Shown piece after piece: positions 3,608 through 20,348 of a stretch of DNA of 20,867 nt. The stretch is from Halalkalibacterium halodurans (GTDB lineage: Bacteria; Bacillota; Bacilli; Bacillales; Bacillaceae_D): positions 1-20,867 of the forward strand of contig NZ_SNUY01000066.1 of NCBI RefSeq assembly GCF_004376175.1. Direction: 5' to 3'. The notes under the pieces are model-generated. The model was not told the origin of the DNA. It ran no database searches and saw only the letters and a list, made by a program, of their open reading frames with translations. Positions within the stretch are counted from its first letter, which is position 1. Every line of letters begins with the position of its first letter. The translations under genes were made by a program, and so were the position numbers.

Positions 3608-3608
3608 T

Positions 3609-3705: not shown

Positions 3706-3793
3706 GTCAAGATAATGGCATAAAAAAGGTTGAGAGTATGCAATAATGAAAGCGCTAACAATATTTAGTCTGAAAAGTCAGATAACACGAAGG
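3706..3793 (+). promoter_or_regulatory. Conserved regulatory cassette, copy 2 (upstream of the GH59 gene)
   Basis: Paralogous to 689-776 (see that entry). Weaker similarity with indels extends upstream: AATGTC(A/G)AAA and AATCG(T/C)AAA at about 664-688 versus about 3664-3705. Confidence 0.6.
3747..3760 (+). promoter_or_regulatory. cre site (CcpA catabolite-responsive element)
   Basis: TGAAAGCGCTAACA fits WTGNAANCGNWNNCW at all constrained positions (flanked a...a). It occupies the same position within the conserved cassette as the site at 730-743. Confidence 0.7.
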
Positions 3794-3798
3794 CGAAG

Positions 3799-3836
3799 GT
3801 TAGACCTGAAAAGGGGAGCCCCCGATTTCAGCTAAC
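3799..3836 (+). other. Stable stem-loop in the long 5' leader of the GH59 gene
   Basis: Pairings are gttag(3799-3803)/ctaac(3832-3836), ctgaaa/tttcag and gggg/cccc, giving about 15 bp with small bulges and an agc loop. No T tract follows on either strand, so it is not a canonical terminator. Confidence 0.55.
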
Positions 3837-4007
3837 ATAAACAACAAAAAGTGGAACATAACAGAGCGAAGAAGGTCAGGTTGGGCAACGGAAGACAACA
3901 CAATGAAGGAATTTGCTGACCATCCTCTATTGGAAGGGAGGGACAGATTGTTTTGCTATTTAGCTATCACAAATCGTTCGACCGATAATCAGAGGAAGGA
4001 GAATTTC

Positions 4008-7000: not shown

Positions 7001-7805
7001 TACTGTCTACGCGTTTCGGAAAAATACGTCCTGGGGATCAAATAACACTAATGCGTGGGCCAACTTTGATGATGATCCGTACATTCTCATTCACTTTACG
7101 GGAACAGGCATTGATTACCTTGCAGGAACGGGAGAACAGACGCTGTACAAATTCGAGTTGGATGGTGAAGACGTCGGTAACTTTGGTGTCGATCCTAGCA
7201 CCGGCATCAGGTATTCCGTTCGAGATCTTGAGGAAGGTCCACATACGTTAAAAGTATCTTTAGGAGAGAATGAACGAAAAGAAACGTTTATGGACTATCG
7301 CGGCGTCAATATTTATAGCACCCCTCAAGCCGACAAACCGACAAGCACGATGATCTTCCAGTTTGAAGGAACAGGATTTAATTTATTCGGAGCCACTCCA
7401 GATGCGCTCATCGACGTCTATATCGACGGAGAACTAGTCGACGAAAATCATCGAGTTCATGCCAAAGGTGACAGGCAAACCTCATACCACATAAGAGGGC
7501 TAGACGATACGAAGCATCTAGCCAAAATTGACATCAAAGGCGGCACCTTTGTGTTCGATGGTCTAGACGTCATCAAAGGCTCATCGAAAAAGGAACAGGA
7601 GGATGTGAAGGGAAAGCTTCAACAGTTATACGAGGCCAATCAAGGCAAAGACAAAAAAGCCTACACGAAAGAAAGCTGGAAGGTGTTCCACAAAGCGATG
7701 CAACATGCGAAGGCGGTGTTGAAAAATCCGAATAGCTCAGTGGATAAACTAGCAGCCGCCCTGACAGCTCTGCAGGAAGCAGTCGAAGGGTTGGAAGAAA
7801 AATAA
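4008..7805 (+). CDS. Secreted GH59-family (galactocerebrosidase-like) beta-galactosidase/galactanase with a C-terminal extension of three CBM-like beta-sandwich repeats and a helical tail
   Basis: The start was moved from the track's ATG 3903 to ATG 4008. RBS GGAAGGAG lies at 3994-4001, and the N-terminus [38 protein letters not shown] is a classic Sec signal peptide. Colinear matches to human GALC, recalled from memory: [17 protein letters not shown]...[24 protein letters not shown] vs GIGAVSGGGATSRLLVNY...[31 protein letters not shown] vs DYIGIWNE (acid/base Glu); IWVSEG vs LWSSED (nucleophile Glu); [10 protein letters not shown] vs [29 protein letters not shown] vs IGDYNWTNLTIKCDVYIET (lectin domain). 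Beyond about nt 6400 there are three repeats: F(E/K/T)GT(E/G)I.LYG...DVYLNGE..G / ...HTVKV (approx 6480-6910, 7000-7270, 7340-7580). A FIVAR-like helix follows: [26 protein letters not shown]...L. Confidence 0.88.
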   Translation: [1265 protein letters not shown]

Positions 7806-7812
7806 CTTGAAA

Positions 7813-7853
7813 GAAGCAACCTATTCCTTGATGGAGTAGGTTGTTTCTTTTTC
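7813..7853 (+). terminator. Rho-independent terminator after the GH59 gene
   Basis: gaagcaaccta (7813-7823) pairs with taggttgtttc (7837-7847) with one mismatch. The loop is 13 nt and is followed by TTTTT. Confidence 0.7.
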
Positions 7854-7975
7854 TAGCTTTTTGAAATCTTTCATCTCCTGAATCTAATTTGATTCCGCAC
7901 TTTTTTGTATAAACATGCTAAACTTTTACTCTAGACGCTAGAGACAGCAATCAACAAATGGATAGAGGGGATTTC

Positions 7976-8521
7976 ATGAAGATACATCCAAAAGCTTTTC
8001 TTTGCAACGGGATGGACTGTGTCATACGATCGGCAACTGAGGATGATGCGAGAAATTTATCGGAAGTAAGGCTGCAAATCGATGGCGAAACGGAATATTT
8101 AGATCGAGAACAGGGCGAGGCGTTTTTAGATGAATCGGCCTTTAAACAGATTATCAGAAAGGATACGGAAAATAGCTATCATTTGTTTTTAGTAGCAGAA
8201 GTGGATAAGCGAATTGTCGGCTTCTCTCGCTGCGAAGGAAACAAACTGAAACGGTTGGCTCACAAAGTCGAATTTGGCGTTTGTGTGTTAAAAGAATGGT
8301 GGGGATATGGGATCGGAAAGCACCTTTTGGCCGAATCCATCCATTGGGCCGACACAAGTGGAATCAAGAAAATGAATTTAAGTGTGCTTGAAACTAATGG
8401 CAAGGCAATTAAACGATATGAACAATTTGGATTTGAAGTGGAAGGGGTGTTACAAAAGGACAAACGACTTTCAGACGGAACATACTACAATACCGTTTTG
8501 ATGGGAAGGTTTAAGGAGTAG
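7976..8521 (+). CDS. GNAT-family N-acetyltransferase
   Basis: ATG 7976 is preferred over 7958 because RBS GAGGGG sits 5 nt upstream. The acetyl-CoA binding motif is VLKEWWGYGIGKHLL, and the tail LSVLETNGKAIKRYEQFGFEVEG is typical of GNAT. Confidence 0.85.
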   Translation: MKIHPKAFLCNGMDCVIRSATEDDARNLSEVRLQIDGETEYLDREQGEAFLDESAFKQIIRKDTENSYHLFLVAEVDKRIVGFSRCEGNKLKRLAHKVEFGVCVLKEWWGYGIGKHLLAESIHWADTSGIKKMNLSVLETNGKAIKRYEQFGFEVEGVLQKDKRLSDGTYYNTVLMGRFKE

Positions 8522-8658
8522 AGGTTCATACATAAAAGATGTTTTTCTGAGCGAGTGAAAATGCAACGTATTAACGTCACCTTTATTTATGACCATTTAA
8601 TGGTGCTAAATGTGGTAAAATTTGATATAAAGGGACGTCAACTATTTTGGAGGTATGC

Positions 8659-9207
8659 ATGAATATCGGTGCCGAGTATTTAAACGTCGTGATTGAGAGA
8701 TTTGAAAGTGTTAAACGACTAGGTGATCGAACATTAAGTCAATTATCAAATGAGGACATCCATTGGTCCCATCACGATGAGTCCAATAGTGTGGCGATCA
8801 TTGTCAAGCATATGAGTGGCAATATGATTTCCAGATGGACTGATTTTTTAACGACCGACGGAGAGAAAGAATCTCGCAATCGTGACGAAGAATTTACCGA
8901 CGATATCACTTCTAAAGCAGAACTAATGGCGATCTGGGAAAAAGGGTGGTCTGCACTCATGAAGGCGCTCGGTGAACTACAGCCTGACGATTTACTGAAG
9001 ACGGTAACGATTCGCGGGGAAAAACATCTAGTCCTAGCAGCCATTGAACGGCAGGTGGCCCATTATGCTTATCATGTCGGACAGATCGTATATATTGGAA
9101 AGGAACGAAAACATACAGATTGGGAAAGCCTCAGCATTCCAAAAGGGCAATCCGAGACCTACTTACAGCAAATGCTAAATAAACATAGGTCAGATAATGA
9201 AAAGTGA
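8659..9207 (+). CDS. DinB-superfamily protein (DUF1572-like)
   Basis: ATG 8659 is preferred over the track's TTG 8647, with GGAGG at 8649-8653. Motifs are ...SNSVAIIVKHMSGNMISRWTDFLTTDGEKESRNRDEEF... and ...QVAHYAYHVGQIVYIGK..., the His-containing four-helix DinB pattern. Confidence 0.75.
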   Translation: MNIGAEYLNVVIERFESVKRLGDRTLSQLSNEDIHWSHHDESNSVAIIVKHMSGNMISRWTDFLTTDGEKESRNRDEEFTDDITSKAELMAIWEKGWSALMKALGELQPDDLLKTVTIRGEKHLVLAAIERQVAHYAYHVGQIVYIGKERKHTDWESLSIPKGQSETYLQQMLNKHRSDNEK

Positions 9208-9252
9208 ACAGGGGAATTCGTTGAGGCAAGTTCGTATGAAGGAAGTGTTGCT

Positions 9253-10086
9253 ATGAAGTTCACGACGAATGACGGATTACAGCTTGTTTACGACCGTCAT
9301 GGAAAGGGAGCACCTTGTCTTTATTTACACGGCGGACCGGGCTATTGGAGTAAGTCATTTCAACAGTGCACACAAAGGCTTTTAGAAGAGAAACTAGAAA
9401 TGATTTATTTGGATCAGCGTGGCTGTGGACGCTCGGATCATTGCCCAAACAAAAACTATTCGTTGCAGCGGCTCATTGATGATGTGGAGCAATTGAGGCA
9501 TAGGTTGGGAATCGATGAATGGTATGTGATGGGGCACTCATTTGGAGGAATCCTTGCTGTCCATTACGCTCACCGTTTTCCCGATAGAACAAAAGGGCTG
9601 ATCCTGGTCAATGCATCGTTACACATGTTAGATTCCCTTCGTCATCAGTTAACAAAAGGTGCAACGATTTTAGGAAGACCAGAAAAGGAACACACTACAA
9701 ATGATCTTGATTTGATCATGAAAGACTATTTGGCGATGGTACAGACTTTGTTAAAAAACGACACGTATTTCACCTTTCAGTTTGTCGACATCACCCAGAA
9801 AAAACGAATGGATGAGGTGGATCGGGATGGATTGAATAGTGACGTCGCCTTTCAACGGTATGTTTTTTCCTCACTTGACTACTTTCAAGATTTTACTCCA
9901 TTAACGGCAAAGATTATGAAACCGACACTGGTTATCGCTGGAGCATATGACCATGCGATTGGCCCGAAACATCATCAGCGGTTCAAATTTGAACATTCTG
10001 ATGTCCGCGTATTAAAAAGCGCACACCATCCTTATCTTGAACATCCAAGCGAATTTCAACAGGCGGTCTTAGACTTTATTGACTAG
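9253..10086 (+). CDS. Alpha/beta-fold hydrolase, proline-iminopeptidase-like (S33)
   Basis: HGGPG oxyanion motif (LYLHGGPGYW). The nucleophile elbow is GHSFGG. The C-terminal HHPYLEHP supplies the catalytic His region. RBS is GAAGGAAG. Confidence 0.85.
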   Translation: MKFTTNDGLQLVYDRHGKGAPCLYLHGGPGYWSKSFQQCTQRLLEEKLEMIYLDQRGCGRSDHCPNKNYSLQRLIDDVEQLRHRLGIDEWYVMGHSFGGILAVHYAHRFPDRTKGLILVNASLHMLDSLRHQLTKGATILGRPEKEHTTNDLDLIMKDYLAMVQTLLKNDTYFTFQFVDITQKKRMDEVDRDGLNSDVAFQRYVFSSLDYFQDFTPLTAKIMKPTLVIAGAYDHAIGPKHHQRFKFEHSDVRVLKSAHHPYLEHPSEFQQAVLDFID

Positions 10087-10112
10087 CTCCATTCAAATGA
10101 ATGGGCTTTTTT
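10087..10112 (+). terminator. Rho-independent terminator after the hydrolase gene
   Basis: ccattc (10089-10094) pairs with gaatgg (10099-10104) around the loop aaat, followed by gc and TTTTTT (10107-10112). Confidence 0.65.
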
Positions 10113-10137
10113 GTCATGAAGCAAGAACAAAAATCTT

Positions 10138-10166
10138 TTGACACATGAAGTGGTCTCGTTTAAAAT
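10138..10166 (+). promoter_or_regulatory. Sigma-A promoter of the zagA/yciC-like gene
   Basis: TTGACA (10138-10143), a 17-nt spacer, then TAAAAT (10161-10166). This is a near-consensus promoter. Confidence 0.75.
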
Positions 10167-10172
10167 TGAAAA

Positions 10173-10187
10173 TAGTAATTATTACGA
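10173..10187 (+). promoter_or_regulatory. Zur box (Fur-family 7-1-7 operator)
   Basis: TAGTAATtATTACGA matches the B. subtilis Zur consensus TCGTAATnATTACGA at 13 of 14 positions, with matching AAA/TTT flanks. It lies 7 nt downstream of the -10 and so covers the transcription start region. Confidence 0.8.
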
Positions 10188-10215
10188 TTTACAAAAAGGA
10201 TTTTAGGAGGCCCAT

Positions 10216-11415
10216 ATGAGTCAAACGATTCCGGTCACGGTTTTAAGTGGATATCTTGGATCAGGGAAAACAACGTTGCTTAATCATCTATTGAAAAATC
10301 GCCAAGGGTTAAAAATTGCGGTAATTGTCAATGACATGAGTGAAGTGAACATTGACGCCGAATTGGTGAAGCAGGGCGGTGAATTGTCTAGGACGGAAGA
10401 GAAATTAGTTGAGATGTCCAATGGCTGTATTTGCTGCACATTACGTGAGGATTTGTTAATTGAAGTCGAGAAGCTAGCACGTGCGGGAAATATTGATTAT
10501 ATCGTCATTGAATCGACCGGCATTAGCGAGCCGATCCCTGTGGCACAAACATTTTCCTACATTGACGAGGAACTTAACATTGATTTAACGAAGTTTTGCC
10601 GCTTGGATACGATGGTGACGGTTGTGGATGCGAATCGTTTTTGGCATGATTTTCGCTCAGGTGACAGCCTGCTTGATCGAAAGGAGGCGCTCGGTGAGGA
10701 AGATGAGCGGGAGATTGCCGATTTGCTTATTGATCAAATCGAGTTTTGCGATGTGCTGCTGTTAAACAAGTGTGATCTTGTGGAAGAAGCGGAGCTTGAG
10801 AAACTAGAAAGCGTGCTCAAAACTTTACAGCCAAAAGCGAAAATCATTCGCACGATTAACGCGGAGGTTGACCCGAAAGAGATATTACATACGGGGCGAT
10901 TTAACTTTGAAGAGGCGAGCAACTCTGCCGGTTGGATCCGAGAGCTTACAGCTGGACACGCGCAGCATACACCGGAAACGGAGGAATATGGGATTTCGTC
11001 GTTCGTCTATACGAGACGGGAGCCGTTCCATTCAGAACGCTTCAACCACTGGATTCATTCGATGCCTGAAAATATCGTTCGAGCTAAAGGGATTGCATGG
11101 TGCGCCACGCGAAACAACTTGGCGCTTTTACTCTCACAGGCGGGACCGTCTGTAACCATCGAGCCTGTTTCATTTTGGGTTGCCAGCCTTCCAGAGGCAG
11201 AGAAGCAGCACATTTTACGAGAAAATCCCCACTTGCTAGAGGCTTGGGATGAAACGTACGGAGATCGTCATACTAAATTAGTGTTTATTGGAACCGACTT
11301 AAACCCGGAAGAGATTACACGTGAATTAGATCACTGTCTGTTAACAGACGGAGAGTTTTCGTCGGATTGGGAGCAGCTAGAAGACCCATTCAAGTGGAAT
11401 TTGCAAAGAGCGTAG
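10216..11415 (+). CDS. zagA: COG0523 zinc metallochaperone GTPase, ZagA (YciC) orthologue
   Basis: 399 aa with RBS AGGAGG. It is near-colinear with B. subtilis YciC as recalled from memory: IPVTVLSGYLGSGKTTLLN (P-loop), MSNGCICCTLREDLL (CxCC metal motif), IVIESTGISEPIPVAQTF (switch II), LLLNKCDLV (NKxD), and the CobW_C region FVYTRREPFHSERF...VRAKGIAWCA. A Zur box lies upstream. Confidence 0.93.
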   Translation: MSQTIPVTVLSGYLGSGKTTLLNHLLKNRQGLKIAVIVNDMSEVNIDAELVKQGGELSRTEEKLVEMSNGCICCTLREDLLIEVEKLARAGNIDYIVIESTGISEPIPVAQTFSYIDEELNIDLTKFCRLDTMVTVVDANRFWHDFRSGDSLLDRKEALGEEDEREIADLLIDQIEFCDVLLLNKCDLVEEAELEKLESVLKTLQPKAKIIRTINAEVDPKEILHTGRFNFEEASNSAGWIRELTAGHAQHTPETEEYGISSFVYTRREPFHSERFNHWIHSMPENIVRAKGIAWCATRNNLALLLSQAGPSVTIEPVSFWVASLPEAEKQHILRENPHLLEAWDETYGDRHTKLVFIGTDLNPEEITRELDHCLLTDGEFSSDWEQLEDPFKWNLQRA

Positions 11416-11429
11416 ACGGCTCCTCTAAA

Positions 11430-11465
11430 AAAGATAGAGCTCAACTTTGATTGGGTTCTATCTTT
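11430..11465 (+). terminator. Weak terminator or attenuating hairpin between the two COG0523 genes
   Basis: aaagataga (11430-11438) pairs with tctatcttt (11457-11465) around an 18-nt loop. The downstream sequence is only moderately T-rich (cattgttt). Confidence 0.4.
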
Positions 11466-11475
11466 CATTGTTTAT

Positions 11476-11507
11476 AAATAAGGATAATTACGATTTATGA
11501 AACGTAA
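11476..11507 (+). promoter_or_regulatory. Degenerate Zur-like operator upstream of the second COG0523 gene
   Basis: The right half-site plus flank, ATTACGATTTA (11487-11497), is identical to the right arm of the boxes at 10181-10191 and 17612-17622. The left half TAAGGAT matches TCGTAAT at only 3 of 7 positions. The same ATTACG is also part of a second palindrome, TTACGaTTT-atg-AAACGTAA (11488-11507). Confidence 0.45.
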
Positions 11508-11540
11508 CAATAAAAGAGTACACATTTGGAGGGAGATCAA

Positions 11541-12488
11541 ATGGTGAAAGTACCGGTATTTATCTTAAGTGGTTTTTTAGGAAGCGGGAAAACAACGTTA
11601 CTGGAACGGCTGTTAGTTGAAAGTGAAAAGAGAAAACTAAAATCTGCGGTGTTAATGAATGAGATGGGAAAAACCGATACAGATGGCCAGATGATTTCAG
11701 AGAAAAGTCATCAGGTCGAAAAGTTATTAGATGGTTGTATGTGCTGCAATAAAAAAAGTGAAGTGGTTAACTGCATGGAAACGTTGTTAGCGCGAAAGCC
11801 TGACGTGCTTTTTATTGAGCTAACAGGTGTAGCCAACCCTGAAGAAGTAGTCGACTCGTTGACAGAGCCTCAGATCATTGATCGAGTGTACGTGAAGAAG
11901 ATAATTACATTAATCGATGCGGAGAATATTCTTGCTTATAACAGTTTGTTTGACTCCGATCGAGAGCTTGTAAAAACAACGAGACGGCAAGTGGAGGTAG
12001 GGGATTTCCTCATAGTTAATAAAATCGACTTAGTGTCAGATTCAAAAAAAGCGAAAATCGAAAAATTCATTAAACGGCTCAATCCTGTTGCCAAGACCGT
12101 ATTTTCTACGTACAGCAAGGTGGAGTTAGATTCACTTTTTAATACGGCACCATCCTCGATCGAGCACAACCGTATGAGACTCAAAACGAATGATCATCAT
12201 CATTCGTTTTCAAGAGTGAAAAGCATCACCTTATCCCTCTCCACACAAACAAGAAAGAAGGACATTGAAAGGTTTTTGAAAAAGTGGAAACCCCGACTAC
12301 TGAGGGCTAAAGGGTATGTTCATTTTGAGAATGGTACGTATTTGATGCAGCAGGCCATGAAGCGGGTTCAATGGTCACGTGCCCTTTTTCATGGCGAGCC
12401 GTACATTGTCTTAATCGGAATCGACTTACACGAGCATGAGATCAAAGAAGATTGGGCGCAGCTTGTGGAGAAAGCAACGGTTGGATAG
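11541..12488 (+). CDS. Short COG0523 (CobW/YjiA-like) GTPase with intact motifs
   Basis: ATG 11541 is preferred over the track's TTG 11526, with GGAGGG at 11528-11533. Motifs: P-loop GFLGSGKTTLL, CxCC GCMCC, FIELTGVANP, VNKIDLV, a His run NDHHHSF, and the CobW_C region LLRAKGYVHFENG...YIVLIGIDL. 315 aa. Confidence 0.88.
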   Translation: MVKVPVFILSGFLGSGKTTLLERLLVESEKRKLKSAVLMNEMGKTDTDGQMISEKSHQVEKLLDGCMCCNKKSEVVNCMETLLARKPDVLFIELTGVANPEEVVDSLTEPQIIDRVYVKKIITLIDAENILAYNSLFDSDRELVKTTRRQVEVGDFLIVNKIDLVSDSKKAKIEKFIKRLNPVAKTVFSTYSKVELDSLFNTAPSSIEHNRMRLKTNDHHHSFSRVKSITLSLSTQTRKKDIERFLKKWKPRLLRAKGYVHFENGTYLMQQAMKRVQWSRALFHGEPYIVLIGIDLHEHEIKEDWAQLVEKATVG

Positions 12489-12494
12489 ACGAAG

Positions 12495-12522
12495 TAGCTG
12501 CCTTATGCGGCTGCTTTTTTTT
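12495..12522 (+). terminator. Rho-independent terminator after the second COG0523 gene
   Basis: gctgcc pairs with ggctgc (one internal mismatch) around the loop ttatgc, followed by T8 (12515-12522). Confidence 0.65.
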
Positions 12523-12544
12523 GATGACTTCATTTTTTTCTAAA

Positions 12545-12559
12545 TCATAATAATTCTGA
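12545..12559 (+). promoter_or_regulatory. Fur-family 7-1-7 operator (Zur-like, specificity ambiguous) upstream of the permease pair
   Basis: taaaTCATAATaATTCTGAttta is a palindromic 7-1-7 site with Zur-type AAA/TTT flanks. It matches 11 of 14 positions to the Zur consensus, and also 11 of 14 to the Fur and PerR consensus boxes. The discriminating dinucleotide is CA in both arms (Zur CG, Fur GA, PerR TA). It overlaps a possible -10, CATAAT (12546-12551). Confidence 0.5.
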
Positions 12560-12616
12560 TTTACTGTTTGTCCGCATAGAGATGAAATAACCTACGTGCG
12601 GAGAGAAGGGAACTGG

Positions 12617-13618
12617 ATGGATACGAAACAGGATTATACGGGAGTTGTAGGTTTTCTGTTGCTTGGGCTAGCGGCGATCGTGATGGTCTTTCATAAGCAG
12701 TTCACGCTCCATCAGCTCATCTTGCCTGAATCGCTATTAACGTTCAATGTGATTTTTTTAAGTATTTTTATCGAAGCGATTCCGTTTGTGTTAATCGGTG
12801 TATTGATTGCTGGAATCATTCAAGTGTTTGTTACCGAAGCTCATCTTAAACGATTCATTCCGCAACATCCGTTCTTGGCGGTCATTTCCAGCTGTTTCAT
12901 TGGAGCGCTGTTTCCGGCGTGTGAATGCGGGATTGTTCCGATCGTGCGTCGCTTAATCGCAAAGGGAGTTCCCCTTTACGCCGGAGTAGGGTTTCTCCTG
13001 ACAGGTCCTTTGATTAATCCGATCGTGCTGTTTTCCACCTATGTGGCGTTTGGAGGAAGTCTACCGATGGCCTTTTTACGTATGTCGCTCGGGCTCGTCA
13101 TCGCCATCATTGTCGCTGGGCTGATTGCGAGTGTTTTTAGGCGAAATCAGCTAAAGCGGACAAGAGAAGATGTCACACGTGGTGAAACTGCTGGATCGAA
13201 GCCTCCGTTAGGCGAAAGGTTTAACGCGATGTTTCGACATTCAATTGATGAATTTTTTGACATGGGAAAGTTTTTAATGATCGGTGCACTGTTAGCTGCA
13301 TTCGTTCAAACCTATGTTTCAACTAGCTCTCTCCTCGGACTTAGTGAAGGGATCGTTACGTCTACGCTCATCATGATGGGACTTGCTTACCTTCTTTCTT
13401 TATGTTCAGAGGCGGATGCCTTTATTGCGGCTTCCTTTCATCATGTGTTCCCGCAAACCTCGCTCCTTGGATTTTTAATTTACGGCCCAATGTTAGATTT
13501 GAAAAATACGATCATGATGCTGGCGGTCTTTAAGTTTCGATTTGTCATGGTGCTAATGGTGATGATCACAGGCACCGTTGCGGGGATTTTGCTACTAATG
13601 CATCCATGGATTGACTAG
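12617..13618 (+). CDS. Polytopic membrane permease, COG0701 / DUF318 (ArsP_1-like) family
   Basis: ATG 12617 is preferred over the track's GTG 12596, with the GGAGAGAAGGG RBS region upstream. The protein is highly hydrophobic with about 8 or more predicted TM segments. It carries the family-typical Cys motif FPACECGIVPIVRRL and a second half with LSLCSEADAFIAASF. The stop overlaps the RBS of the next gene. Confidence 0.8.
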   Translation: MDTKQDYTGVVGFLLLGLAAIVMVFHKQFTLHQLILPESLLTFNVIFLSIFIEAIPFVLIGVLIAGIIQVFVTEAHLKRFIPQHPFLAVISSCFIGALFPACECGIVPIVRRLIAKGVPLYAGVGFLLTGPLINPIVLFSTYVAFGGSLPMAFLRMSLGLVIAIIVAGLIASVFRRNQLKRTREDVTRGETAGSKPPLGERFNAMFRHSIDEFFDMGKFLMIGALLAAFVQTYVSTSSLLGLSEGIVTSTLIMMGLAYLLSLCSEADAFIAASFHHVFPQTSLLGFLIYGPMLDLKNTIMMLAVFKFRFVMVLMVMITGTVAGILLLMHPWID

Positions 13619-13629
13619 GAGGGCAGACG

Positions 13630-14361
13630 ATGATGTACATACGCACAAACCAATTGCTGAAAGCGGTCATCTTATTGCTGTTTGCGGTGTTTCTCTTCCT
13701 GTTGCATGAGACGGGAGAGATCGCTCGGTTTATCAACCCCCAATACGTGCACCTCAGTCAAATTGCGTCGATCCTCTTCTTGTTTTTATTTTTCATCCAA
13801 GTGCCGAGAATGTTCACGAATTCAGAGGACGACCTTTGCGGGTGTGGCCTTTGGGGCTGTAGTCATGGAGAAGAAGGACGTTTTGCTATGAAGCATGTTA
13901 TTTCCTATGGACTCATCAGCTTGCCACTAATGATCGGCTTTCTGTTCCCATTTAAAGATTTTGGAGCGGCTGAAGCGCTAAAACGAGGGGTTCAGTATCA
14001 AGTATCCCAACACGAAGCACGCGATGAAGCCTCTTTAGAGAAAAATGTGCAAGAGCTGCTGGAGCAGTCTGCTTTGATATTACACCGTGACAATTTCGTT
14101 AGCTCATTGCGGGCGCTAACGACATACCCTACGCGCTTTGTTGGCAAACCAATTTTGCTAGAAGGGTTTATTATAGAGGACTGTCAGGATGAAAAGGTGA
14201 CGGTCATTACACGATTTCTCGTCACCCATTGTGTCGCGGACAGCCATGCGGCAGGATTCATCCTTGAGCATGAGGATTCATTAGGGGGAAGAGAGGATCA
14301 ATGGCTTCAAGTAATGGGTGTGTTAGATGTCAAAATAGAGACTCGGAAATTAAATAGCTAA
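13630..14361 (+). CDS. TIGR03943 / DUF1980 partner subunit of the two-component membrane permease
   Basis: RBS GGAGGG at 13618-13623. There are two N-terminal TM helices, a Cys/His cluster DDLCGCGLWGCSHGEE (about nt 13831-13875), a third TM helix, then a soluble domain with the family-typical motif THCVADSHAAGFIL. It is translationally coupled to the COG0701 permease. Confidence 0.75.
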   Translation: MMYIRTNQLLKAVILLLFAVFLFLLHETGEIARFINPQYVHLSQIASILFLFLFFIQVPRMFTNSEDDLCGCGLWGCSHGEEGRFAMKHVISYGLISLPLMIGFLFPFKDFGAAEALKRGVQYQVSQHEARDEASLEKNVQELLEQSALILHRDNFVSSLRALTTYPTRFVGKPILLEGFIIEDCQDEKVTVITRFLVTHCVADSHAAGFILEHEDSLGGREDQWLQVMGVLDVKIETRKLNS

Positions 14362-14502
14362 TTCTGGGTCTTTTGGGGGATGAAAGCGAGATTCAAGAGG
14401 ACCAATTGGAATTTTCAACGTCATTTTCAAAAAAGTGCATGTTAAATAAACCACAAGCAGTGGATTTTTTAAAAAATGTATTTTAAGATGTTGATGATGG
14501 CT

Positions 14503-16005
14503 TTATAGGGAGAGCAGAGATTTAATTATGGGATCTATAGTTGAGAAATGATTCTTTTCTGCTTCCTTCATCCAGGCATCGGCATGTTGGCACATGCCGA
14601 TGATGTAACTTCGAATATTCCAATGTCTAGAACTACGACCTCTTGAATCCTCTAAACGATAATCAATTTTTTGTCGTTTGATACAACGCTCGACCCCAGT
14701 ACGTAAAGCATAACGCTTATACCATTCCTTACTATCACGTTTTACTCTAGGAAAAAGACGAGGGTTATCCTTCGTCGATGTATAAAAGGTCCGTCCATAA
14801 GCAGATTCTGAACAAGGTGTGGGACATGTCCATTTTCCAACGACAGCTGGACAGCGCCATTTACGGCGATATCGTTTCTTATCGACTCCCCAATCGAGCA
14901 TTTTTCTACCGATGGGACAGATTGGAACGCCGTCTAAGTTAATGTCCATTTCATTGTAGATGAACTGTTTTGAACGCCTTGGATTGAGGTCAATGATGGC
15001 AGAAACATCATGGTGTTCTAACATTTCATAGATCGGATAAGCATCCAGAGCTGAGTCTAGGATGACTTCACCAAACGTCCAATCGGGATACCAATGTTTG
15101 AGTTCATGGAAGGTACTGACAAACAAGACAGAGTCATGTTTACTGGCACGATACATCCTAGGATAAATCGGTAAATCATAAGGACTATCCGAAGCAGCTA
15201 CCATGAAAAGACTTCTACCATAATAGTACTTTTCACGAGAACTATCCCAACCGTAATCAGCATCAGGGTCTGAAAACTGCCGTTGACATTGGCATTTCCA
15301 ATTACCTTGTTTACGGCAGTCACAAAGGAACTTACCATAAGGCCGACCACCTGTTATCACGGGAGATCCGTCAGCCATCATGCTTAGTGATTGGGTGTTC
15401 CCTACTAATCCTTTCGATGCGGATGGATGAACGAATAAAGACTGAAAAAGGATTTGGAGCTGGTCGTGGGCCTTGGCTGTATATCGAACTTTCTTGTTTT
15501 TTAAGGCACGCTTCACTAACTTTTGAACAATTTTCGGATTTTTCGGTTCAAGTTTCTGATTCTTTTTTCCTTTCTTTTTTGCCTTCTTTAATTTTCGCTT
15601 CTTCCGATTGGATAGATGTGGAGAAGGAGCTAACCAAAGGCGATTGAAAAAGTCATAAAAGGTTCCTACTCCAGGAACATTATCCGGAGTAAAGCCACTA
15701 AGAATAGCCCAAATGGGAGTTGTTTTTAAGGTGAACACCCATTGATCTACACTGGTAACCTTTTGATCATGCATAAGCATTAAACTACGAAGCATATCAC
15801 AAGGATTACGGGGTTTTCTTCCTCTGGGATTCGAGGAATAGCGATGTTTCAGGAGAGTGCCAGCATCGGTTAGATCAACCAAAGAACACCAAACGATAGG
15901 TTTGGAGTAAAAATCCGTTAAAAAAGTTTTGTCATCGAATTGTAGATCTAGCTGTTCAACAACAAAGTTAAGATAAGATTCATGTGTACGAATGTTAGTA
16001 AGCAT
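14503..16005 (-). CDS. DDE transposase, IS1182-like
   Basis: 500 aa. The N-terminal DUF772-like region is GRKPRNPCDMLRSLMLMH...S. A Lys-rich linker follows. The DDE region has DPDADYGWDSSREKYYYGRSLF and VILDSALDAYPIY. A Cys-rich insertion is VPICPIGRKMLDW...WRCPAVVGKWTCPTPCSES. The C-terminal region RTGVERCIKRQK has the pattern typical of IS1182/IS5-type enzymes. The family call is from memory. Confidence 0.8.
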   Translation of the reverse strand: MLTNIRTHESYLNFVVEQLDLQFDDKTFLTDFYSKPIVWCSLVDLTDAGTLLKHRYSSNPRGRKPRNPCDMLRSLMLMHDQKVTSVDQWVFTLKTTPIWAILSGFTPDNVPGVGTFYDFFNRLWLAPSPHLSNRKKRKLKKAKKKGKKNQKLEPKNPKIVQKLVKRALKNKKVRYTAKAHDQLQILFQSLFVHPSASKGLVGNTQSLSMMADGSPVITGGRPYGKFLCDCRKQGNWKCQCQRQFSDPDADYGWDSSREKYYYGRSLFMVAASDSPYDLPIYPRMYRASKHDSVLFVSTFHELKHWYPDWTFGEVILDSALDAYPIYEMLEHHDVSAIIDLNPRRSKQFIYNEMDINLDGVPICPIGRKMLDWGVDKKRYRRKWRCPAVVGKWTCPTPCSESAYGRTFYTSTKDNPRLFPRVKRDSKEWYKRYALRTGVERCIKRQKIDYRLEDSRGRSSRHWNIRSYIIGMCQHADAWMKEAEKNHFSTIDPIIKSLLSL

Positions 16006-16045
16006 AATTATTCCCCCATTTCAAGTGATGAAAAAACCTTTCACT

Positions 16046-16074
16046 TAATTATTTGAGGAACAAATGTTTGTCAA
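16046..16074 (-). promoter_or_regulatory. Sigma-A promoter for the IS transposase
   Basis: On the minus strand: TTGACA (complement of 16069-16074), a 17-nt spacer, then TAATTA (complement of 16046-16051). It lies about 40 nt upstream of the transposase ATG. Confidence 0.5.
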
Positions 16075-16113
16075 GAGGAAAGTTTGTTCGCACTCCTGTT
16101 TTGGGGGTGAAGC

Positions 16114-16144
16114 AATAAAAAAGCCCTAGTCAAAAGACTAGAGC
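16114..16144 (-). terminator. Rho-independent terminator of the rpsN2 / degenerate-COG0523 operon
   Basis: The minus-strand RNA reads gctctagtc-uuuu-gactagggc (a 9-bp stem including one G-U pair), followed by TTTTTTATT. The plus strand has no T tract after the hairpin. Confidence 0.8.
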
Positions 16145-16263
16145 TGGTGCGGAAAATTAATTTCCGAGTAGCTATTCAAACAACATGGAGGGGTTTTATT
16201 ACCTGTCATCCGCGTCATCGAGTGGGAGGAAATTGAACCTCCCGCAAACCCATACGTCTATCC

Positions 16264-17292
16264 TTAACCAAAGGCGATTCGATCATGGTTTGGTTGTAGG
16301 CACTCATGAAGGAGACGACTAAGTGCGTCACGATCTAGCTCAAAACCAATAAACAATAACTCTGTTTGAACGTCACGGTTCTCCATTAGATCTGTGGTCG
16401 TTGTGTCAACTTGAATATGGGCACCTACTTGAGAAATGGAGTGAAGCTCACCTGTTTGCGGGTTATAGCAACGCCCCTTCATGCGAAAAATGTCGTTCGG
16501 AAGATGCTCGAAAAATCGCTCCAACTGGTGAATGCCAACAGGCTGTGAGCTTTGATAGAAAAACGTATCAACCCCGTAGTTGTGGATCACTTTTACATGT
16601 TGTCGTGAAGCGACAAGGTTCCGCTGTTCCACATAAAGAGACGCATAGCCGTTCTTGTCAAAGGTTGTATGCCCCTTTTGGCAACGTTGAATGGCTTCGT
16701 GCAAATCACATAGCAACGCTCGTGGCTGGAGCACGCGTAAAAAGGCTGTAAGTTCACCGAGGCGCTCAGAGGAAAGCCCATACTGGTGATAAAGACAAAG
16801 GGTGTCCGCTAACTCTAGCTGAAGGATGAGCGCTTCCCCTAACGTTTGAGTGAAATCTTGGTCAGCGGTGATAATCTCGTGTTCTGAGAAGTAAGAAAAC
16901 CAAAACGCTTTAGCATCCAATACATGAATATGGGATGCAATGAACCAGTGATGATCTGAAGTGAATTGCTCTAAAAGGCTGTCGATGGATGAGAAAGGAG
17001 AAACATCTAAAAGAATCTCATCTGTGCTACGGTTTTGGTGCTCTTTAGCTAATAACGACATCAAATCAGCTTCGGTTGTCGCTTCCACATGATGGATCGC
17101 CTCGCCAATAAAGCTCGTGACCGGAAAAGGATCCTCACCATTTAATGTAAGCTTCATAGCTTTGGGGTGAAAGCGAATGATCTTTACGTGGTTTTGTCGG
17201 TTTTCTTGATAGCTTTTCATCAACTCTCTCTTCCCGTTTTCCGAGAAGCCTGAGATCACTGTGAGTGGCTTTTGTCTATTCAACCTCGACAC
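16264..17292 (-). CDS. Degenerate COG0523/CobW-family paralogue (predicted GTPase-dead, lacking the CxCC motif)
   Basis: 342 aa from GTG 17292. An alternative TTG at 17283 has better spacing from AAGGGG. The N-terminus aligns to the COG0523 P-loop region but reads LTVISGFSENGKRELM instead of GxxGSGKTTLL. No CxCC is present: the equivalent region is IGEAIHHVE. Switch II IESTG is replaced by LLDVSP, and NKxD by LYHQYG. The CobW_C domain is preserved: VDTFFYQSSQPVGIHQLERFFEHLPNDIFRMKGRCYNP...ELLFIGFELD. It starts 15 nt after the rpsN2 stop with no intervening terminator. Confidence 0.8.
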   Translation of the reverse strand: MSRLNRQKPLTVISGFSENGKRELMKSYQENRQNHVKIIRFHPKAMKLTLNGEDPFPVTSFIGEAIHHVEATTEADLMSLLAKEHQNRSTDEILLDVSPFSSIDSLLEQFTSDHHWFIASHIHVLDAKAFWFSYFSEHEIITADQDFTQTLGEALILQLELADTLCLYHQYGLSSERLGELTAFLRVLQPRALLCDLHEAIQRCQKGHTTFDKNGYASLYVEQRNLVASRQHVKVIHNYGVDTFFYQSSQPVGIHQLERFFEHLPNDIFRMKGRCYNPQTGELHSISQVGAHIQVDTTTTDLMENRDVQTELLFIGFELDRDALSRLLHECLQPNHDRIAFG

Positions 17293-17307
17293 CCCTTGTC
17301 TAATTCA

Positions 17308-17577
17308 TTACCAGCTTGATTTTTTCACGCCAGGAATTTGCCCTTTATGTGCAAGCTCGCGAAACGCAATCCGTGACAGCTTGAACTTGCGTAAGACGCC
17401 CCGTGGTCTGCCGGTCATTTCGCATCGTCTCGTTAACCGAGTAGGGGAGGAGTCTCGAGGAAGCTTTCGGAGTGCTTCGTAGTCACCTTTTTCTTTTAAC
17501 TCTTTTCTTAATTCTGCATAACGAGCGACGAGCTCCTGACGTTTTTTTTCCTTTGCGACTTTTGATTTCTTCGCCAT
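17308..17577 (-). CDS. rpsN2: 30S ribosomal protein S14, long zinc-independent (C-minus) paralogue
   Basis: The start was trimmed to [13 protein letters not shown]..., with ATG at the complement of 17575-17577 and RBS AAGGTGG. The 89-aa product is nearly colinear with B. subtilis YhzA/RpsN2 as recalled (...[51 protein letters not shown]). It lacks the CxxC...CxxC zinc ribbon of the 61-aa form. Confidence 0.93.
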
Positions 17578-17603
17578 AACGTTTACCACCTTTCTTTTGA
17601 AAA

Positions 17604-17618
17604 TCAAAATCATTACGA
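17604..17618 (-). promoter_or_regulatory. Zur box 1 upstream of rpsN2
   Basis: aaaTCAAAATcATTACGAttt matches the Zur consensus at 12 of 14 core positions, with a perfect right arm and flanks. It lies just downstream of a candidate minus-strand promoter, TTACTT-16-TATGAT. Confidence 0.75.
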
Positions 17619-17670
17619 TTTATATCATAGTAGAAATAGCGTCCGAAGTAAAGGGCTGTGACGAAATCAA

Positions 17671-17685
17671 TCGTAATCGTTACGG
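17671..17685 (-). promoter_or_regulatory. Zur box 2 upstream of rpsN2
   Basis: TCGTAATcGTTACGG has a perfect left arm and a right arm matching 5 of 7. It lies 67 bp from box 1. It overlaps a second possible minus-strand promoter, TTGGCT-16-TACGAT. Confidence 0.6.
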
Positions 17686-17761
17686 TTTGTTAGCCAAACT
17701 TAGTTGCTTAAGGCGATAATCACTCAGCGACAACAGAAAAAAGAGCTAATGAATCGAGCGA

Positions 17762-17789
17762 AACCTCTCTGAGATTTCTCAGAGAGGTT
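17762..17789 (-). terminator. Perfect 12-bp hairpin downstream of the isochorismatase-family gene (terminator candidate without a clear U tract)
   Basis: aacctctctgag (17762-17773) pairs with ctcagagaggtt (17778-17789) around the loop attt. Only a short TTT follows on the minus strand. Confidence 0.45.
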
Positions 17790-17813
17790 GAACCATTTAG
17801 AAGAAAGCCTATC

Positions 17814-18371
17814 CTACCGAAATTGATTATGTGTAGGCTCGAACAAAGCTTCGTTCGTATTTCTGACGATTGAAAAGTGGTCTACATTGTAATGGCCGTG
17901 GAGGGCTTCGTTATGATGAAGAATGATTTGTTTAGCAGACAACGTTTTTGAATCAGTAGTAGAATGTCCATCTCCAACTAATGTGACATCAACATGACGG
18001 ACGGTGGCCGTTCTGACGGCAGTATCGATACAATGTTCTGTTTTACAACCCATCATCACAAGGTGTTGGATGTTGTTTTCCGTTAAATATGTGTCTAGTG
18101 GTGTACCGTAAAAACAATTGGTGGCGGATTTATTAAAAATAACCGCTGATGGGGGCACCTTAATGTCTTTGTGAATGTCGAATCCAGGCCCTTCTCCATT
18201 GGCAACATCTACATCTCTTATAAAAACAATAGCGGCGTTTTCAGTATTCGCTTTTTCAATGACCGTATTGATGTTTGCTACGAGACGTTCTTTCTCAAAA
18301 ACGGGTGGAACTTCTTTAGAACCTTCGATTAATTCCTGCTGGGCGTCAATAATGATGAGGGCTTGTTTCAA
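17814..18371 (-). CDS. Isochorismatase-family cysteine hydrolase
   Basis: TTG start with a strong RBS, GGAGGAG, 5 nt upstream. Catalytic triad context: ALIIIDAQ (Asp), FNKSATNCF (Lys), LVMMGCKTEHCIDTAV (Cys). 185 aa. Confidence 0.85.
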   Translation of the reverse strand: MKQALIIIDAQQELIEGSKEVPPVFEKERLVANINTVIEKANTENAAIVFIRDVDVANGEGPGFDIHKDIKVPPSAVIFNKSATNCFYGTPLDTYLTENNIQHLVMMGCKTEHCIDTAVRTATVRHVDVTLVGDGHSTTDSKTLSAKQIILHHNEALHGHYNVDHFSIVRNTNEALFEPTHNQFR

Positions 18372-18475
18372 CTAATCTCCTCCTGAAATTTACTATGATT
18401 CAAGTATACTGCAAATTTTTAGTAAGTGACTAAATTTCTTTTAAGAGAGTAGCGGCGGGTTGTTCCTACCTATTG

Positions 18476-18509
18476 TAAATTTGACAAATTTAGAAACTCC
18501 TTTAGATTT
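18476..18509 (+). promoter_or_regulatory. Candidate promoter of the PepSY gene with an overlapping perfect palindrome
   Basis: TTGACA (18481-18486), a 16-nt spacer, then TAGATT (18503-18508). The -35 is embedded in the perfect inverted repeat TAAATTTG-a-CAAATTTA (18476-18492). Confidence 0.45.
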
Positions 18510-18572
18510 CACGTCCTTTTCACAACTTTTGTTTACACTGACTTCGGAAAACAGAAAGGAGAAGGAGTGGAC

Positions 18573-19958
18573 ATGGTGGGAGCGGCAAACGAGAGGGTGA
18601 AAACAAAGGAGGCCGAGCAGGGAAAGCGAGCGCGATACCGAGTCGTATGGCGGTGGCATTTTTATGCAGGCCTCATATTTTCACCGTTTTTGATCATTTT
18701 TGCGATTAGTGGGGGCGTCTATCTTTTTAAACCACAAATTGAAGCGTCCTTGTACCAAGAGTTGTACTACGTTCAGGAAATAAAGGAAGCTACGTTAACC
18801 CCGTCTGCCTTAGTGGCACGAGCGAAGGAAGCGTTTCCTGAGTCGCCTGTAAGCTCGGTACGATTTTACGACGATCCTCAGCGGACGACGGAGATCAGCA
18901 TGATGAAGGATGGGGAACGGATTTCCGTTTATGTAAATCCTTACAATGGGGAAGTTCAAGGCTCTCTCGTGAACAGTGAAAAGCTAACAGAAATCTTTAA
19001 AAAGATTCATAGTGAATTGTGGGTTGGCGGTACGTTTGCGAACAGGCTTGTCGAGCTTGCAGCCTGTTGGGCGGTGATCTTATTACTTACTGGACTTTAT
19101 ATTTGGTGGCCGAGAAGCAGAACGTCCATTTTGGGGACCATCCTTCCGCGATTCAAGAAAAAAGGACGGGTCTTTTGGCGTGACATGCACGCGGTGCCGG
19201 CGTTCTGGTTATCCTTGTTCATCTTCATTTTAATTGCAACAGGTCTCCCTTGGACAGGAGTAATGGGGGAGCAAATCAATCGTATCGCTACTTCAACGAA
19301 TACGGGGTATCCCCCGTATGCACTTAGTTTTAGGGACAAGCCGGAGTCGACTGTTAAAACAAAAGAAGTGGCAGACGATGTTCCGTGGGCAACTGAACAA
19401 TTAACGGTTCCTACCTCCTCAGGAGGACAAGTCCCGATTTCTCTTGAAGATGTGACGTACCTTGCAGAGACAAGAGAAGTGAACAAACCATATACGATTT
19501 CGATGCCGGAAGGGGACACGGGTGTCTATACGATCGCCAGCTCCCATACGAAACCTGGGGATAATGCTACCATCCATGTGGATCAGTATAGTGGGGCGAT
19601 TTTAAGTGATGTGCGTTTCCATGATTACGGGATGATGGCGAAAGGGATTACGATCGGAATCGCTCTTCACGAAGGACGATTGTTCGGCTTGCCCAATCAA
19701 ATTCTTGGTTTGATCACCTGCCTAGGTTTGATCGGGTTAATTGTTAGCTCGTGGGTGATGTGGAAAAAGCGAAAGCCTCAACGGTCATTAGGGGCACCTA
19801 CTCAAGTGAAGGATCGAAAGGTTTCGCGAACGGTTTTTGTCATCATGATGGTCATGGGAATCATCATGCCTCTCGTCGGGCTCTCAATTATTTTCATTTA
19901 TTTCTTGGATCGCTTTGTTTTATCTAAAATGAAGCGACTGCAAGCGTGGTATTCATAA
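18573..19958 (+). CDS. PepSY-associated TM-helix membrane protein (PiuB-like)
   Basis: ATG 18573 lies after tandem AAGGAG RBSs; the track starts at GTG 18567. The signature is RWHFYAGLIFSPFLIIFAISGGVYLFKPQIE, followed by a periplasmic domain, further TM helices (LAACWAVILLLTGLYIWWP, HAVPAFWLSLFIFILIATGLPW) and a C-terminal TM pair. Confidence 0.8.
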   Translation: MVGAANERVKTKEAEQGKRARYRVVWRWHFYAGLIFSPFLIIFAISGGVYLFKPQIEASLYQELYYVQEIKEATLTPSALVARAKEAFPESPVSSVRFYDDPQRTTEISMMKDGERISVYVNPYNGEVQGSLVNSEKLTEIFKKIHSELWVGGTFANRLVELAACWAVILLLTGLYIWWPRSRTSILGTILPRFKKKGRVFWRDMHAVPAFWLSLFIFILIATGLPWTGVMGEQINRIATSTNTGYPPYALSFRDKPESTVKTKEVADDVPWATEQLTVPTSSGGQVPISLEDVTYLAETREVNKPYTISMPEGDTGVYTIASSHTKPGDNATIHVDQYSGAILSDVRFHDYGMMAKGITIGIALHEGRLFGLPNQILGLITCLGLIGLIVSSWVMWKKRKPQRSLGAPTQVKDRKVSRTVFVIMMVMGIIMPLVGLSIIFIYFLDRFVLSKMKRLQAWYS

Positions 19959-19969
19959 TTGGAGGAGGA

Positions 19970-20278
19970 ATGAATGTGAGACAGGCACGTTTCTATTATA
20001 TTTTCGTCATTTTACTGGTGGTTGTGGCAGGATGTACAGCCAATACCGATCCGGCAGAACTGTCACAAGACAGAATGGAGGTCATTGACGTAGCGTTTGC
20101 GATTTCGGATGAGCTAAAACCAAACACTCTCCATGAGTTGGCGATTCACGTCACACAAGGAGACGAGAATGTGACAGATGCGACAGACATTCAATTTGAA
20201 ATTTGGCAAGGCCACGATCGGGAGCAAGGAGAGCTTATCGAAGCAAGCCATGTGGAAGACGGGATCTATATAAATTGA
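19970..20278 (+). pseudogene. YtkA-like (FixH-fold) lipoprotein gene, apparently 3'-truncated by the IS630 insertion
   Basis: The lipoprotein signal is MNVRQARFYYIFVILLVVVAGC (lipobox VVAG/C). The domain pattern ...LAIHVTQGDENVTDATDIQFEIWQGHDREQGELIEASHVEDGIY matches the first two thirds of the YtkA-like domain. The ORF then stops (..IYIN*) directly at the edge of the IS630-type element. Confidence 0.55.
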
Positions 20279-20348
20279 ATTAAAGGGTTACAATCACTCT
20301 CTGTCGAAGTATAAGCGTAACACTTATCAATGAATGGAGAGAAACCCA

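Follow-up and report, generated by a model that had tools for sequence, protein, structure and literature searches.

A probable Zur-type zinc-limitation gene cluster in Halalkalibacterium halodurans with a motif-less COG0523 gene behind rpsN2

Genes of the cluster

The DNA analysed here is a 20,867-nucleotide stretch (the window) from a strain of Halalkalibacterium halodurans (contig NZ_SNUY01000066.1, positions 1 to 20,867). Within 7.5 kb of it lie genes for three COG0523 proteins, for a permease pair of the ArsP_1 and TIGR03943 families and for a zinc-free ribosomal protein S14, identities which an initial annotation had proposed and which motif and domain comparisons bear out. Judging from these genes and from the palindromes that precede them, the region is very probably the main gene cluster with which this strain responds to zinc limitation through the regulator Zur, and repression of the cluster by Zur is well supported in silico. 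Its coding features, together with an insertion sequence (IS) that the initial annotation had passed over, are as follows.

10216..11415, forward strand: ZagA/ZigA-like COG0523 GTPase (zagA), 399 amino acids (aa); Walker A GSGKT, CICC and NKCD motifs
11541..12488, forward strand: short COG0523 GTPase, 315 aa; GSGKT, CMCC and NKID motifs
12617..13618, forward strand: ArsP_1 (COG0701) permease, 333 aa; database protein P0157 is 100% identical
13630..14361, forward strand: truncated TIGR03943/DUF1980 subunit; residues 1–235 native, last 8 IS-derived
14335..16175, reverse strand: IS, 1,841 bp; 19-nt imperfect terminal inverted repeats; TCAAA duplication at 14330-14334/16176-16180
14503-16005, reverse strand: DDE transposase of the IS; DDE_Tnp_1 and DUF772 domains
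16176..16267, forward strand: 3' end of the TIGR03943 gene, cut off by the IS; final 28 codons and stop
16264..17283, reverse strand: COG0523-like protein, here called pseudo-G3E, 339 aa; TTG start 24 nt past the rpsN2 stop
17308..17577, reverse strand: rpsN2, long zinc-independent (C-) S14, 89 aa; single Cys

The 399-aa protein contains Pfam cobW (204 bits) and CobW_C (89 bits) domains and has as its best match, over its full length, the NCBIfam ZigA model at 529.6 bits, under the 600-bit equivalog cut-off. Motifs and domains together suggest membership of COG0523 subfamily 1 (ZagA/YciC/ZigA), with the ZigA equivalog threshold not reached. The protein need not be the one-to-one orthologue of Bacillus subtilis ZagA, since relatives encode a second ZagA-like paralogue and strain C-125 has the gene BH1790. 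That second paralogue is about 62% identical to the protein in the window, adjoins the cluster and has a strong Zur box of its own (loci L001 16438-17601, L002 16846-18009 and L011 13895-15058, from related genomes described below); it may correspond to BH1790. The product of rpsN2 scores 121.9 bits with NF006477 (cut-off 77) and 74.9 bits with the type Z model (cut-off also 77), and its lack of the two CxxC pairs makes it an RpsNB-type C- S14. Compared with another H. halodurans assembly (L013), zagA shows six synonymous differences and no non-synonymous ones, and the short COG0523 gene has an in-frame indel of 3 nt (315 aa in the window against 316 aa at L013 10950-11900).

Five palindromes in four operator regions

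In B. subtilis, zinc-loaded Zur represses transcription by occupying boxes of the kind considered here, for which we used the Bacillus-type form of a 9-1-9 inverted repeat (AATCGTAATnATTACGATT). The initial annotation had placed five Fur-family palindromes in the region, and a pattern search with site-by-site comparison recovered all five where it had put them and with the mismatch counts that it had given. Allowing up to three mismatches, the pattern TCGTAATNATTACGA occurs seven times in the window against 0.97 expected, a number reached in none of 100 shuffles; these matches include 10173 (one mismatch), 12545 (three), 17604 (two) and 17671 (two), while at 11479 the left half carries all four mismatches and the right half is perfect. 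The 11-mer ATTACGATTTA is exact at 10181, 11487 and 17612, as had been claimed, and one-mismatch copies on the opposite strand at 12541 and 17667 are the other halves of sites 3 and 5. Outside the 7-1-7 core, the flanks read AAT...(A/G)TT in all five sites, matching the longer Bacillus Zur box.

The boxes, with the promoters and hairpins predicted around them, are listed here; scores come from the matrix described in the next paragraph.

10138..10166, forward strand: predicted sigma-A promoter of the zagA-like gene; TTGACA-17-TAAAAT, 11/12, near-consensus
10171..10189: Zur box 1, AATAGTAATTATTACGATT, 25.4 bits; begins 5 nt past the -10 hexamer; orthologous boxes before zagA in L001-L007
11430..11465, forward strand: weak hairpin after zagA; 15 pairs, 4 G-C, poor T tail
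11477..11495: degenerate Zur box 2 (12.9 bits), AATAAGGATAATTACGATT; no mismatch in the right half; 55 bp before the ATG of the short COG0523 gene
12491..12517, forward strand: intrinsic terminator-like hairpin with T run, after the short COG0523 gene
12524..12551, forward strand: predicted promoter of the permease pair; ATGACT-16-CATAAT, 9/12
12543..12561: weak Zur box 3, AATCATAATAATTCTGATT, 18.1 bits; overlaps the predicted -10 hexamer
17602..17620: Zur box 4 (23.9 bits), the proximal operator of rpsN2; begins 4 nt past the -10 hexamer; centre 34 bp before the ATG
17624..17652, reverse strand: predicted rpsN2 promoter; TTTACT-17-TATGAT; same promoter form in L001
17669..17687: Zur box 5 (23.2 bits), the distal operator of rpsN2; lies upstream of the -35 hexamer at a distance of 17 nt; spacing to box 4, 67 bp

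The scoring matrix was a symmetrised 19-nt one made from seven B. subtilis boxes bound in ChIP-on-chip (chromatin immunoprecipitation read on microarrays), those of adcA, folEB, yczL/yciC, rpsNB, yrpE, rpmEB and S903 (PMC4324032 Table S2). The five sites are the five top scores in the window. Sites 1, 4 and 5 (25.4, 23.9 and 23.2 bits) fall inside the range of the training sites (21–28 bits); site 3 (18.1 bits) falls under that range and over the 95th percentile of the maximum in shuffled windows (15.7 bits; mean 11.1), and site 2 (12.9 bits) does not reach the training range on its own. Under a first-order Markov background of local, A+T-rich composition, scores of at least 18 bits are expected 0.0005 times per 1.1 kb of spacer DNA and scores of at least 22.8 bits did not occur in 2 Mb of simulated A+T-rich sequence, and a score of the grade of site 2 is expected 0.003 times within the 125-bp spacer in which that site lies.

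Mismatches were also counted against the 7-1-7 consensus sequences of the B. subtilis regulators Zur, Fur and PerR.

Site 1: Zur 1, Fur 4, PerR 4
Site 2: Zur 4, Fur 5, PerR 5
Site 3: Zur 3, Fur 3, PerR 3
Site 4: Zur 2, Fur 4, PerR 4
Site 5: Zur 2, Fur 6, PerR 6

These consensus sequences reportedly go back to Fuangthong and Helmann in 2003, with discriminating positions said to be C-G for Zur, G-A for Fur and T-A for PerR. Four of the five cores are nearer to the Zur consensus than to the other two, site 2 by just one mismatch, and by this measure sites 1, 4 and 5 appear clearly Zur-type. The core of site 3 is tied, and the score of site 2 taken alone is unremarkable genome-wide.

Box 1 is predicted to span the zagA transcription start. 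Because the hairpin after zagA is weak, the short COG0523 gene may be partly transcribed by read-through from zagA. Sites 4 and 5 are best described, from the conservation of their spacing in relatives, as a conserved tandem operator array of one rpsN2 promoter and not as two units, so that the region would hold four operator regions rather than five independent ones; this shared promoter had also gone unnoticed. The statement of the initial annotation that every transcription unit is preceded by a box needs amending, since the transposase unit of the IS has none. We considered a divergent promoter served by box 5 and rejected it: the sole match (TAGCCA-18-GATAAT, 9/12) points at the terminator of an isochorismatase gene, with no open reading frame (ORF) behind it. 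The conserved tandem spacing in relatives favours a role for box 5 as an auxiliary rpsN2 operator. A matrix scan of the window for a third tandem box about 65 bp further upstream gave nothing of at least 6 bits.

Conservation in relatives

A profile of the motif-less COG0523 protein, run against one genome per species, returned 12 loci (L001-L012) from Alkalihalobacillus, Halalkalibacter, Anaerobacillus and relatives. L001-L007 share the layout of the window, with rpsN2 and the motif-less COG0523 gene convergent with zagA, the short COG0523 gene, arsP and the TIGR03943 gene; one to three boxes precede rpsN2, and boxes also precede zagA and arsP. The same genes occur in a similar layout in L009 and L011, and conservation is partial in L008, L010 and L012. 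Gene order and boxes recur in four further contigs and in two other H. halodurans assemblies (L013 and L014). Conservation of both in relatives, a check proposed by the initial annotation, was thus found in the 12 related genomes and the four further contigs. Some 15 alkaliphilic Bacillaceae related to the strain in the window share the arrangement.

These comparisons bear on the two weak sites in particular. Five loci (L003-L006 and L009) have a box of 20–24 bits placed 51–59 bp ahead of the start codon of the short COG0523 gene; L012 has a weaker one, and L001, L002, L007 and L011 have none. Because strong boxes occupy the same position in those five loci, we read site 2, which differs from the box of L003 at three adjacent positions, as the probable decayed copy of a real but evolutionarily labile operator. 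In most species at least one ATTACG half-site survives in the orthologue of site 3, and on this basis descent would settle the Zur identity of site 3 even though the H. halodurans copy is weak.

Before rpsN2, box centres lie about 31–40, 98–108 and 162–173 bp from the ATG; the first two positions are occupied in H. halodurans and all three in L001-L004 and L010. Three boxes with 64–67 bp spacing are also present in the metagenomic contig L019. The three-box arrays, spaced 64–68 bp overall, were located at L001 9538-9688, L010 9481-9630 and L019 3524-3673. The opposite strand of L001 has promoter-like sites between the rpsN2 boxes, and some of the boxes might also control a divergent transcript. 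A more distant contig, L020, carries on one strand (2636-9050) cobW, S14, a CxCC-less COG0523 gene with Walker A, cobW, cobW, ArsP_1 and DUF1980, with Zur-like boxes also before upstream NifU_N and dCTP deaminase genes.

Could the palindromes be operators of another Fur-family regulator, such as Fur or PerR, so that the cluster answers to iron or peroxide and not to zinc? The core of site 3 is three mismatches from each of the three consensus sequences, and the TAATnATTA centre is common to all three box types. Sites 1, 4 and 5, however, have one or two mismatches to Zur against four to six to Fur and PerR, a scan of the window found no Fur or PerR match within two mismatches, the site 3 orthologues keep the Zur-type half-site, and COG0523 genes with a C- S14 are classic Zur regulon content; we regard this explanation as very improbable. 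Chance palindromes in A+T-rich intergenic DNA (35% G+C locally), devoid of regulatory role, would suit site 2 taken alone but are scarcely credible for the whole set, given the Markov expectations above and boxes at the same positions in genera whose proteins are just 40–85% identical.

Several points nonetheless weigh against assigning the whole cluster to Zur. The zur gene itself is outside the 20.9-kb window. Chance alone would give about 0.5 scores at the level of site 2 per 20 kb, and a consensus promoter search found no convincing -35 hexamer for box 2. The site 3 core is equidistant from Zur, Fur and PerR. Promoter calls are plain consensus matches, no more frequent in the region than in shuffles. 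The nearest named NCBIfam models of the permease are efflux transporters, far under their cut-offs, and the authors of a B. anthracis study took their upstream boxes as possible sites of activation (PMC6336718). Set beside these, matrix scores, cores nearest to Zur in four of five sites, position at predicted promoters and conservation in relatives argue for the Zur-controlled zinc-limitation cluster that the initial annotation had proposed.

The permease pair and the insertion sequence

The ArsP_1 model matches the 333-aa permease with 236 bits, and the TIGR03943 gene follows 11 nt behind it. More than 2,000 relatives of the permease are found at E<=1e-20, mostly annotated just as "permease". 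The TIGR03943 model gives 120.3 bits for the small subunit against a cut-off of 88.8. In L013 the intact protein has 263 aa; the copy in the window is identical over 235 residues and then runs into the IS. The lost tail holds a WEEIxxPxDPYVYP motif conserved in nine of nine aligned orthologues, so the window does not encode a complete small subunit. In intact strains the TIGR03943 gene and the convergent COG0523-like gene share 4 nt at their ends. L013 and L014 align to the window at 10068-14334 and 16176-20269 with nothing between, so the IS is absent from both; its assignment to the IS1182 family is weak (56 bits against a 270-bit cut-off). IS-free strains are represented by assemblies GCA_034259345.1 and GCA_036223865.1. 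Because the IS removes the conserved C-terminal motif, the small permease subunit of this strain is damaged, and the transporter may be impaired.

TIGR03943 orthologues share HDHSxCGPWGCSHE and THCVADAHA motifs and a His-rich stretch, and these conserved Cys/His motifs fit a metal substrate. B. methanolicus (L015) and Ureibacillus (L016) likewise have a Zur box before their ArsP_1-DUF1980 genes, which in L015 diverge from an L33-cobW unit; a matrix scan of one Paenibacillus ArsP_1-DUF1980 locus gave no box of at least 14 bits. The pair is most likely a metal (zinc) importer. That it exports a metal or another substrate instead, under indirect or activating control by Zur, is the less likely alternative but the one that deserves most weight among those considered here. 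The nearest NCBIfam models, SO_0444 Cu/Zn efflux and SaoE efflux, score 80 and 65 bits against cut-offs of at least 300; the Streptococcus mutans homologue is tied to acid tolerance, and positive regulation was proposed in B. anthracis (PMC6336718); and the strain in the window tolerates a truncated subunit. On the other hand, box 3 lies over the predicted -10 hexamer, which is the geometry of repression, the linkage of the pair to a Zur box is kept across Bacillaceae, the small subunit has conserved Cys/His motifs and the pair is located together with zinc chaperone genes. Literature searches returned nothing specific on DUF1980/TIGR03943 and zinc, on COG0701 and Zur or on the halodurans Zur regulon, nor anything specific for SaoE/SO_0444/SMU.747/UPF0718.

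A COG0523-like protein stripped of its motifs

Pseudo-G3E, encoded behind rpsN2, is without Walker A, CxCC and NKxD, and CobW_C is the sole domain that it retains. Its closest database protein is P0001 from H. halodurans (98% identical), used here since an exact-sequence look-up with a GTG start gave no match. A word-indexed search found only eight pseudo-G3E clusters among 5.8 billion proteins, and exhaustive comparison of a profile with 1.84 billion representatives gave 18 matches at E<1e-30; beyond these, scores drop to about 90 bits, the level at which canonical COG0523 proteins bearing every motif first appear. Every member over this gap is without CxCC and NKxD, and the four most distant full-length members (P0020-P0023) retain Walker A, which suggests that the motifs were lost stepwise, CxCC and NKxD first and Walker A later. 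Among PDB sequences, the subfamily profile had no match at E<=0.01. The AlphaFold model of the protein is of moderate confidence (pLDDT 63.7) and was used just to confirm a YjiA-like fold, not residue placement; its best structural match is E. coli YjiA (E 3e-13). In an inner clade, the position of CxCC reads E-A-x-H-x-x-E, and H-x-H and S-E-H motifs are also conserved, making a histidine-based metal site possible there.

An 89-aa S14 gene lies directly upstream of the subfamily gene in nine of the ten full-length family loci among L001-L012, and the adjacency is also seen in the window, in L013 and L014 and in all four further distant members examined, two of which keep Walker A; for P0023 the look-up returned no record. 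The exceptions are L008, which is full-length with no rpsN2 detected, and L011 and L012, which hold only C-terminal fragments. Because pseudo-G3E shares the mRNA of S14 in every full-length locus examined but one, we propose that its most likely target or partner is the zinc-free S14 or the ribosome.

A decaying pseudogene with no function of its own would equally lack the three motifs, and two further observations suit that explanation: the fragments in L011 and L012, and seven non-synonymous against six synonymous differences from L013 in 1,020 nt, the densest between-strain change in the cluster. Full-length frames are nevertheless kept in at least 15 clusters at 50% identity, with 34–49% identity to the protein in the window. 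Eight members, at 39–49% identity, share 81 invariant columns, which argues that the gene is not a dead one. Position and coupling to rpsN2 are conserved, distant members bearing Walker A sit in the same place and the predicted fold is still YjiA-like, so we consider decay improbable.

Surroundings

The two large secreted glycoside hydrolases upstream (788-7805) are unrelated to the zinc cluster; one has 939 aa (GH43-like, laminin-G, Big_2) and the other 1,300 aa (GH59, CE2_N, FIVAR). At the edge of the cluster, an alpha/beta-hydrolase gene (9253-10086) lies within about 860 bp (9208-10067) that L013 and L014 lack between their DUF1572 gene and zagA, a difference which alignment indicates to be a strain-specific insertion or deletion. 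On the other side, a PepSY_TM membrane protein and a YtkA-like gene form a pair adjoining the cluster (18567-20278), upstream of which we found no Zur box. The last stretch of the window (20334-20867) encodes the N-terminal portion of a helix-turn-helix transposase-like protein (Terminase_5, HTH_33, HTH_29), a second mobile-element gene near the cluster; similarity to L013 ends at 20269. An Rfam scan of the window at gathering thresholds found no RNA family, and hence no riboswitch and no known small RNA.

Discussion

ZagA-type proteins are zinc chaperones, and the zinc-free S14* allows ribosomes to be assembled when there is too little zinc for the zinc-binding S14. With this background, the arrangement of the cluster suggests how it would work. 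When zinc is sufficient, zinc-loaded Zur dimers would sit on the 9-1-9 repeats at or just downstream of the -10 hexamers and block RNA polymerase at three or four promoters, those of zagA, the short COG0523 gene (through a decayed operator), arsP-TIGR03943 and rpsN2-pseudo-G3E. As zinc falls, Zur would leave the DNA. The products would then be, by homology, a GTP-dependent zinc chaperone of the ZagA/ZigA type and a second, shorter COG0523 GTPase, together with a membrane permease of two subunits, the smaller one bearing conserved Cys/His motifs, a zinc-free S14 that would let 30S subunits form without zinc, and pseudo-G3E, a COG0523 derivative from which GTP binding and the CxCC metal site have been lost. 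Two strong operators 67 bp apart would make derepression of rpsN2-pseudo-G3E tight and late, and the one weak operator of the permease, box 3, would allow its earlier derepression.

The closest known system is the B. subtilis Zur regulon (zagA/yciC, rpsNB/yhzA, rpmEB, znuABC, folEB), which has the same operator sequence and likewise pairs a COG0523 chaperone with a C- S14, and whose derepression is graded, with rpsNB last (PMC5007448). There, however, the genes are scattered in separate operons, whereas in the window all lie within 7.5 kb; no motif-less COG0523 follows rpsNB, whereas the window has one and tandem rpsN2 operators besides; and no ArsP_1/TIGR03943 pair is among the regulon boxes of PMC4324032 Table S2. 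In B. anthracis, Zur binds in electrophoretic mobility shift assays (EMSA) upstream of yciC (BAS1633), of the ArsP_1 permease operon adjoining it (BAS1632) and of a second COG0523 gene (BAS1786), and the permease was likened to a subunit of the S. mutans two-component permease (PMC6336718). COG0523 paralogues, two of them Zur-regulated in B. anthracis, and an ArsP_1 permease are thus common to B. anthracis and the window, permease orthology being taken from the family description of that paper alone, but an S14 paralogue and a motif-less COG0523, both present in the window, are not described there.

In B. (Shouchella) clausii, a Zur site (TAAtTCGTAATCATTACGATTTA) was predicted before a yciC-S14p operon (Haas et al. 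2009, Additional file 5). A COG0523 gene and an S14 paralogue were thus already on record under a single Zur site, but the COG0523 gene there is a canonical yciC, listed first in the operon. The same source gives BH1790 of B. halodurans C-125 a box (cAAAgCGTAATtATTACGATTTA) at -196 (Haas et al. 2009, Additional file 5), and the window cluster is absent from its table. Because that box matches none of the five sites in the window, BH1790 is probably a fourth paralogue elsewhere.

For pseudo-G3E the nearest parallel is mycobacterial. The COG0523-like protein Mrf (MSMEG_6069) comes from a Zur-controlled operon that also encodes zinc-free ribosomal proteins, S14 among them, and it recruits a hibernation factor to remodelled ribosomes (PMC7431043); its M. 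tuberculosis relative Rv0106 is without canonical Walker A and CxCC (PMC2770081). Like Mrf, pseudo-G3E is encoded with a C- ribosomal protein gene; it lies 24 nt past rpsN2, behind two Zur boxes, and the arrangement recurs in relatives. Membership of the MRF family itself (NCBIfam NF047431, cut-off 375 bits) was considered and rejected, the protein in the window giving no match at E<=1. The MRF model matches four of eight pseudo-G3E relatives (best E 0.006) and the ZigA model weakly matches all eight, and for these reasons we treat the resemblance as probably convergent. By analogy, pseudo-G3E might be a nucleotide-independent factor for the alternative ribosome, a Bacillaceae counterpart of Mrf that evolved independently from a ZigA-like ancestor, an idea which we put forward tentatively and think rather unlikely. 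If it were true, pseudo-G3E would aid the entry of S14* into the 30S subunit or couple zinc status to ribosome hibernation, and the HxH and ExxH histidines of the inner clade could possibly serve to sense zinc with low affinity.

As a Zur regulon cluster the locus is a small addition to existing knowledge, because the type is already known and its operator, chaperone, S14 switch and ArsP_1 permease link are documented in other bacilli. The suggestion of the initial annotation that its parts had mostly not been studied was therefore an overstatement, ZagA and S14* being well studied and the B. anthracis EMSA and the B. clausii yciC-S14p prediction being on record; the S14-linked, CxCC-less COG0523 subfamily is the sole part for which we could not find a description in the literature. 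The compact, conserved grouping argues that the ArsP_1/TIGR03943 pair is part of the zinc response across Bacillaceae, and natural strains with and without the IS-cut permease subunit offer a ready comparison. The small, clade-restricted CxCC-less offshoot, for its part, would be a second, independent case beside mycobacterial Mrf for roles of COG0523-like proteins at the ribosome.

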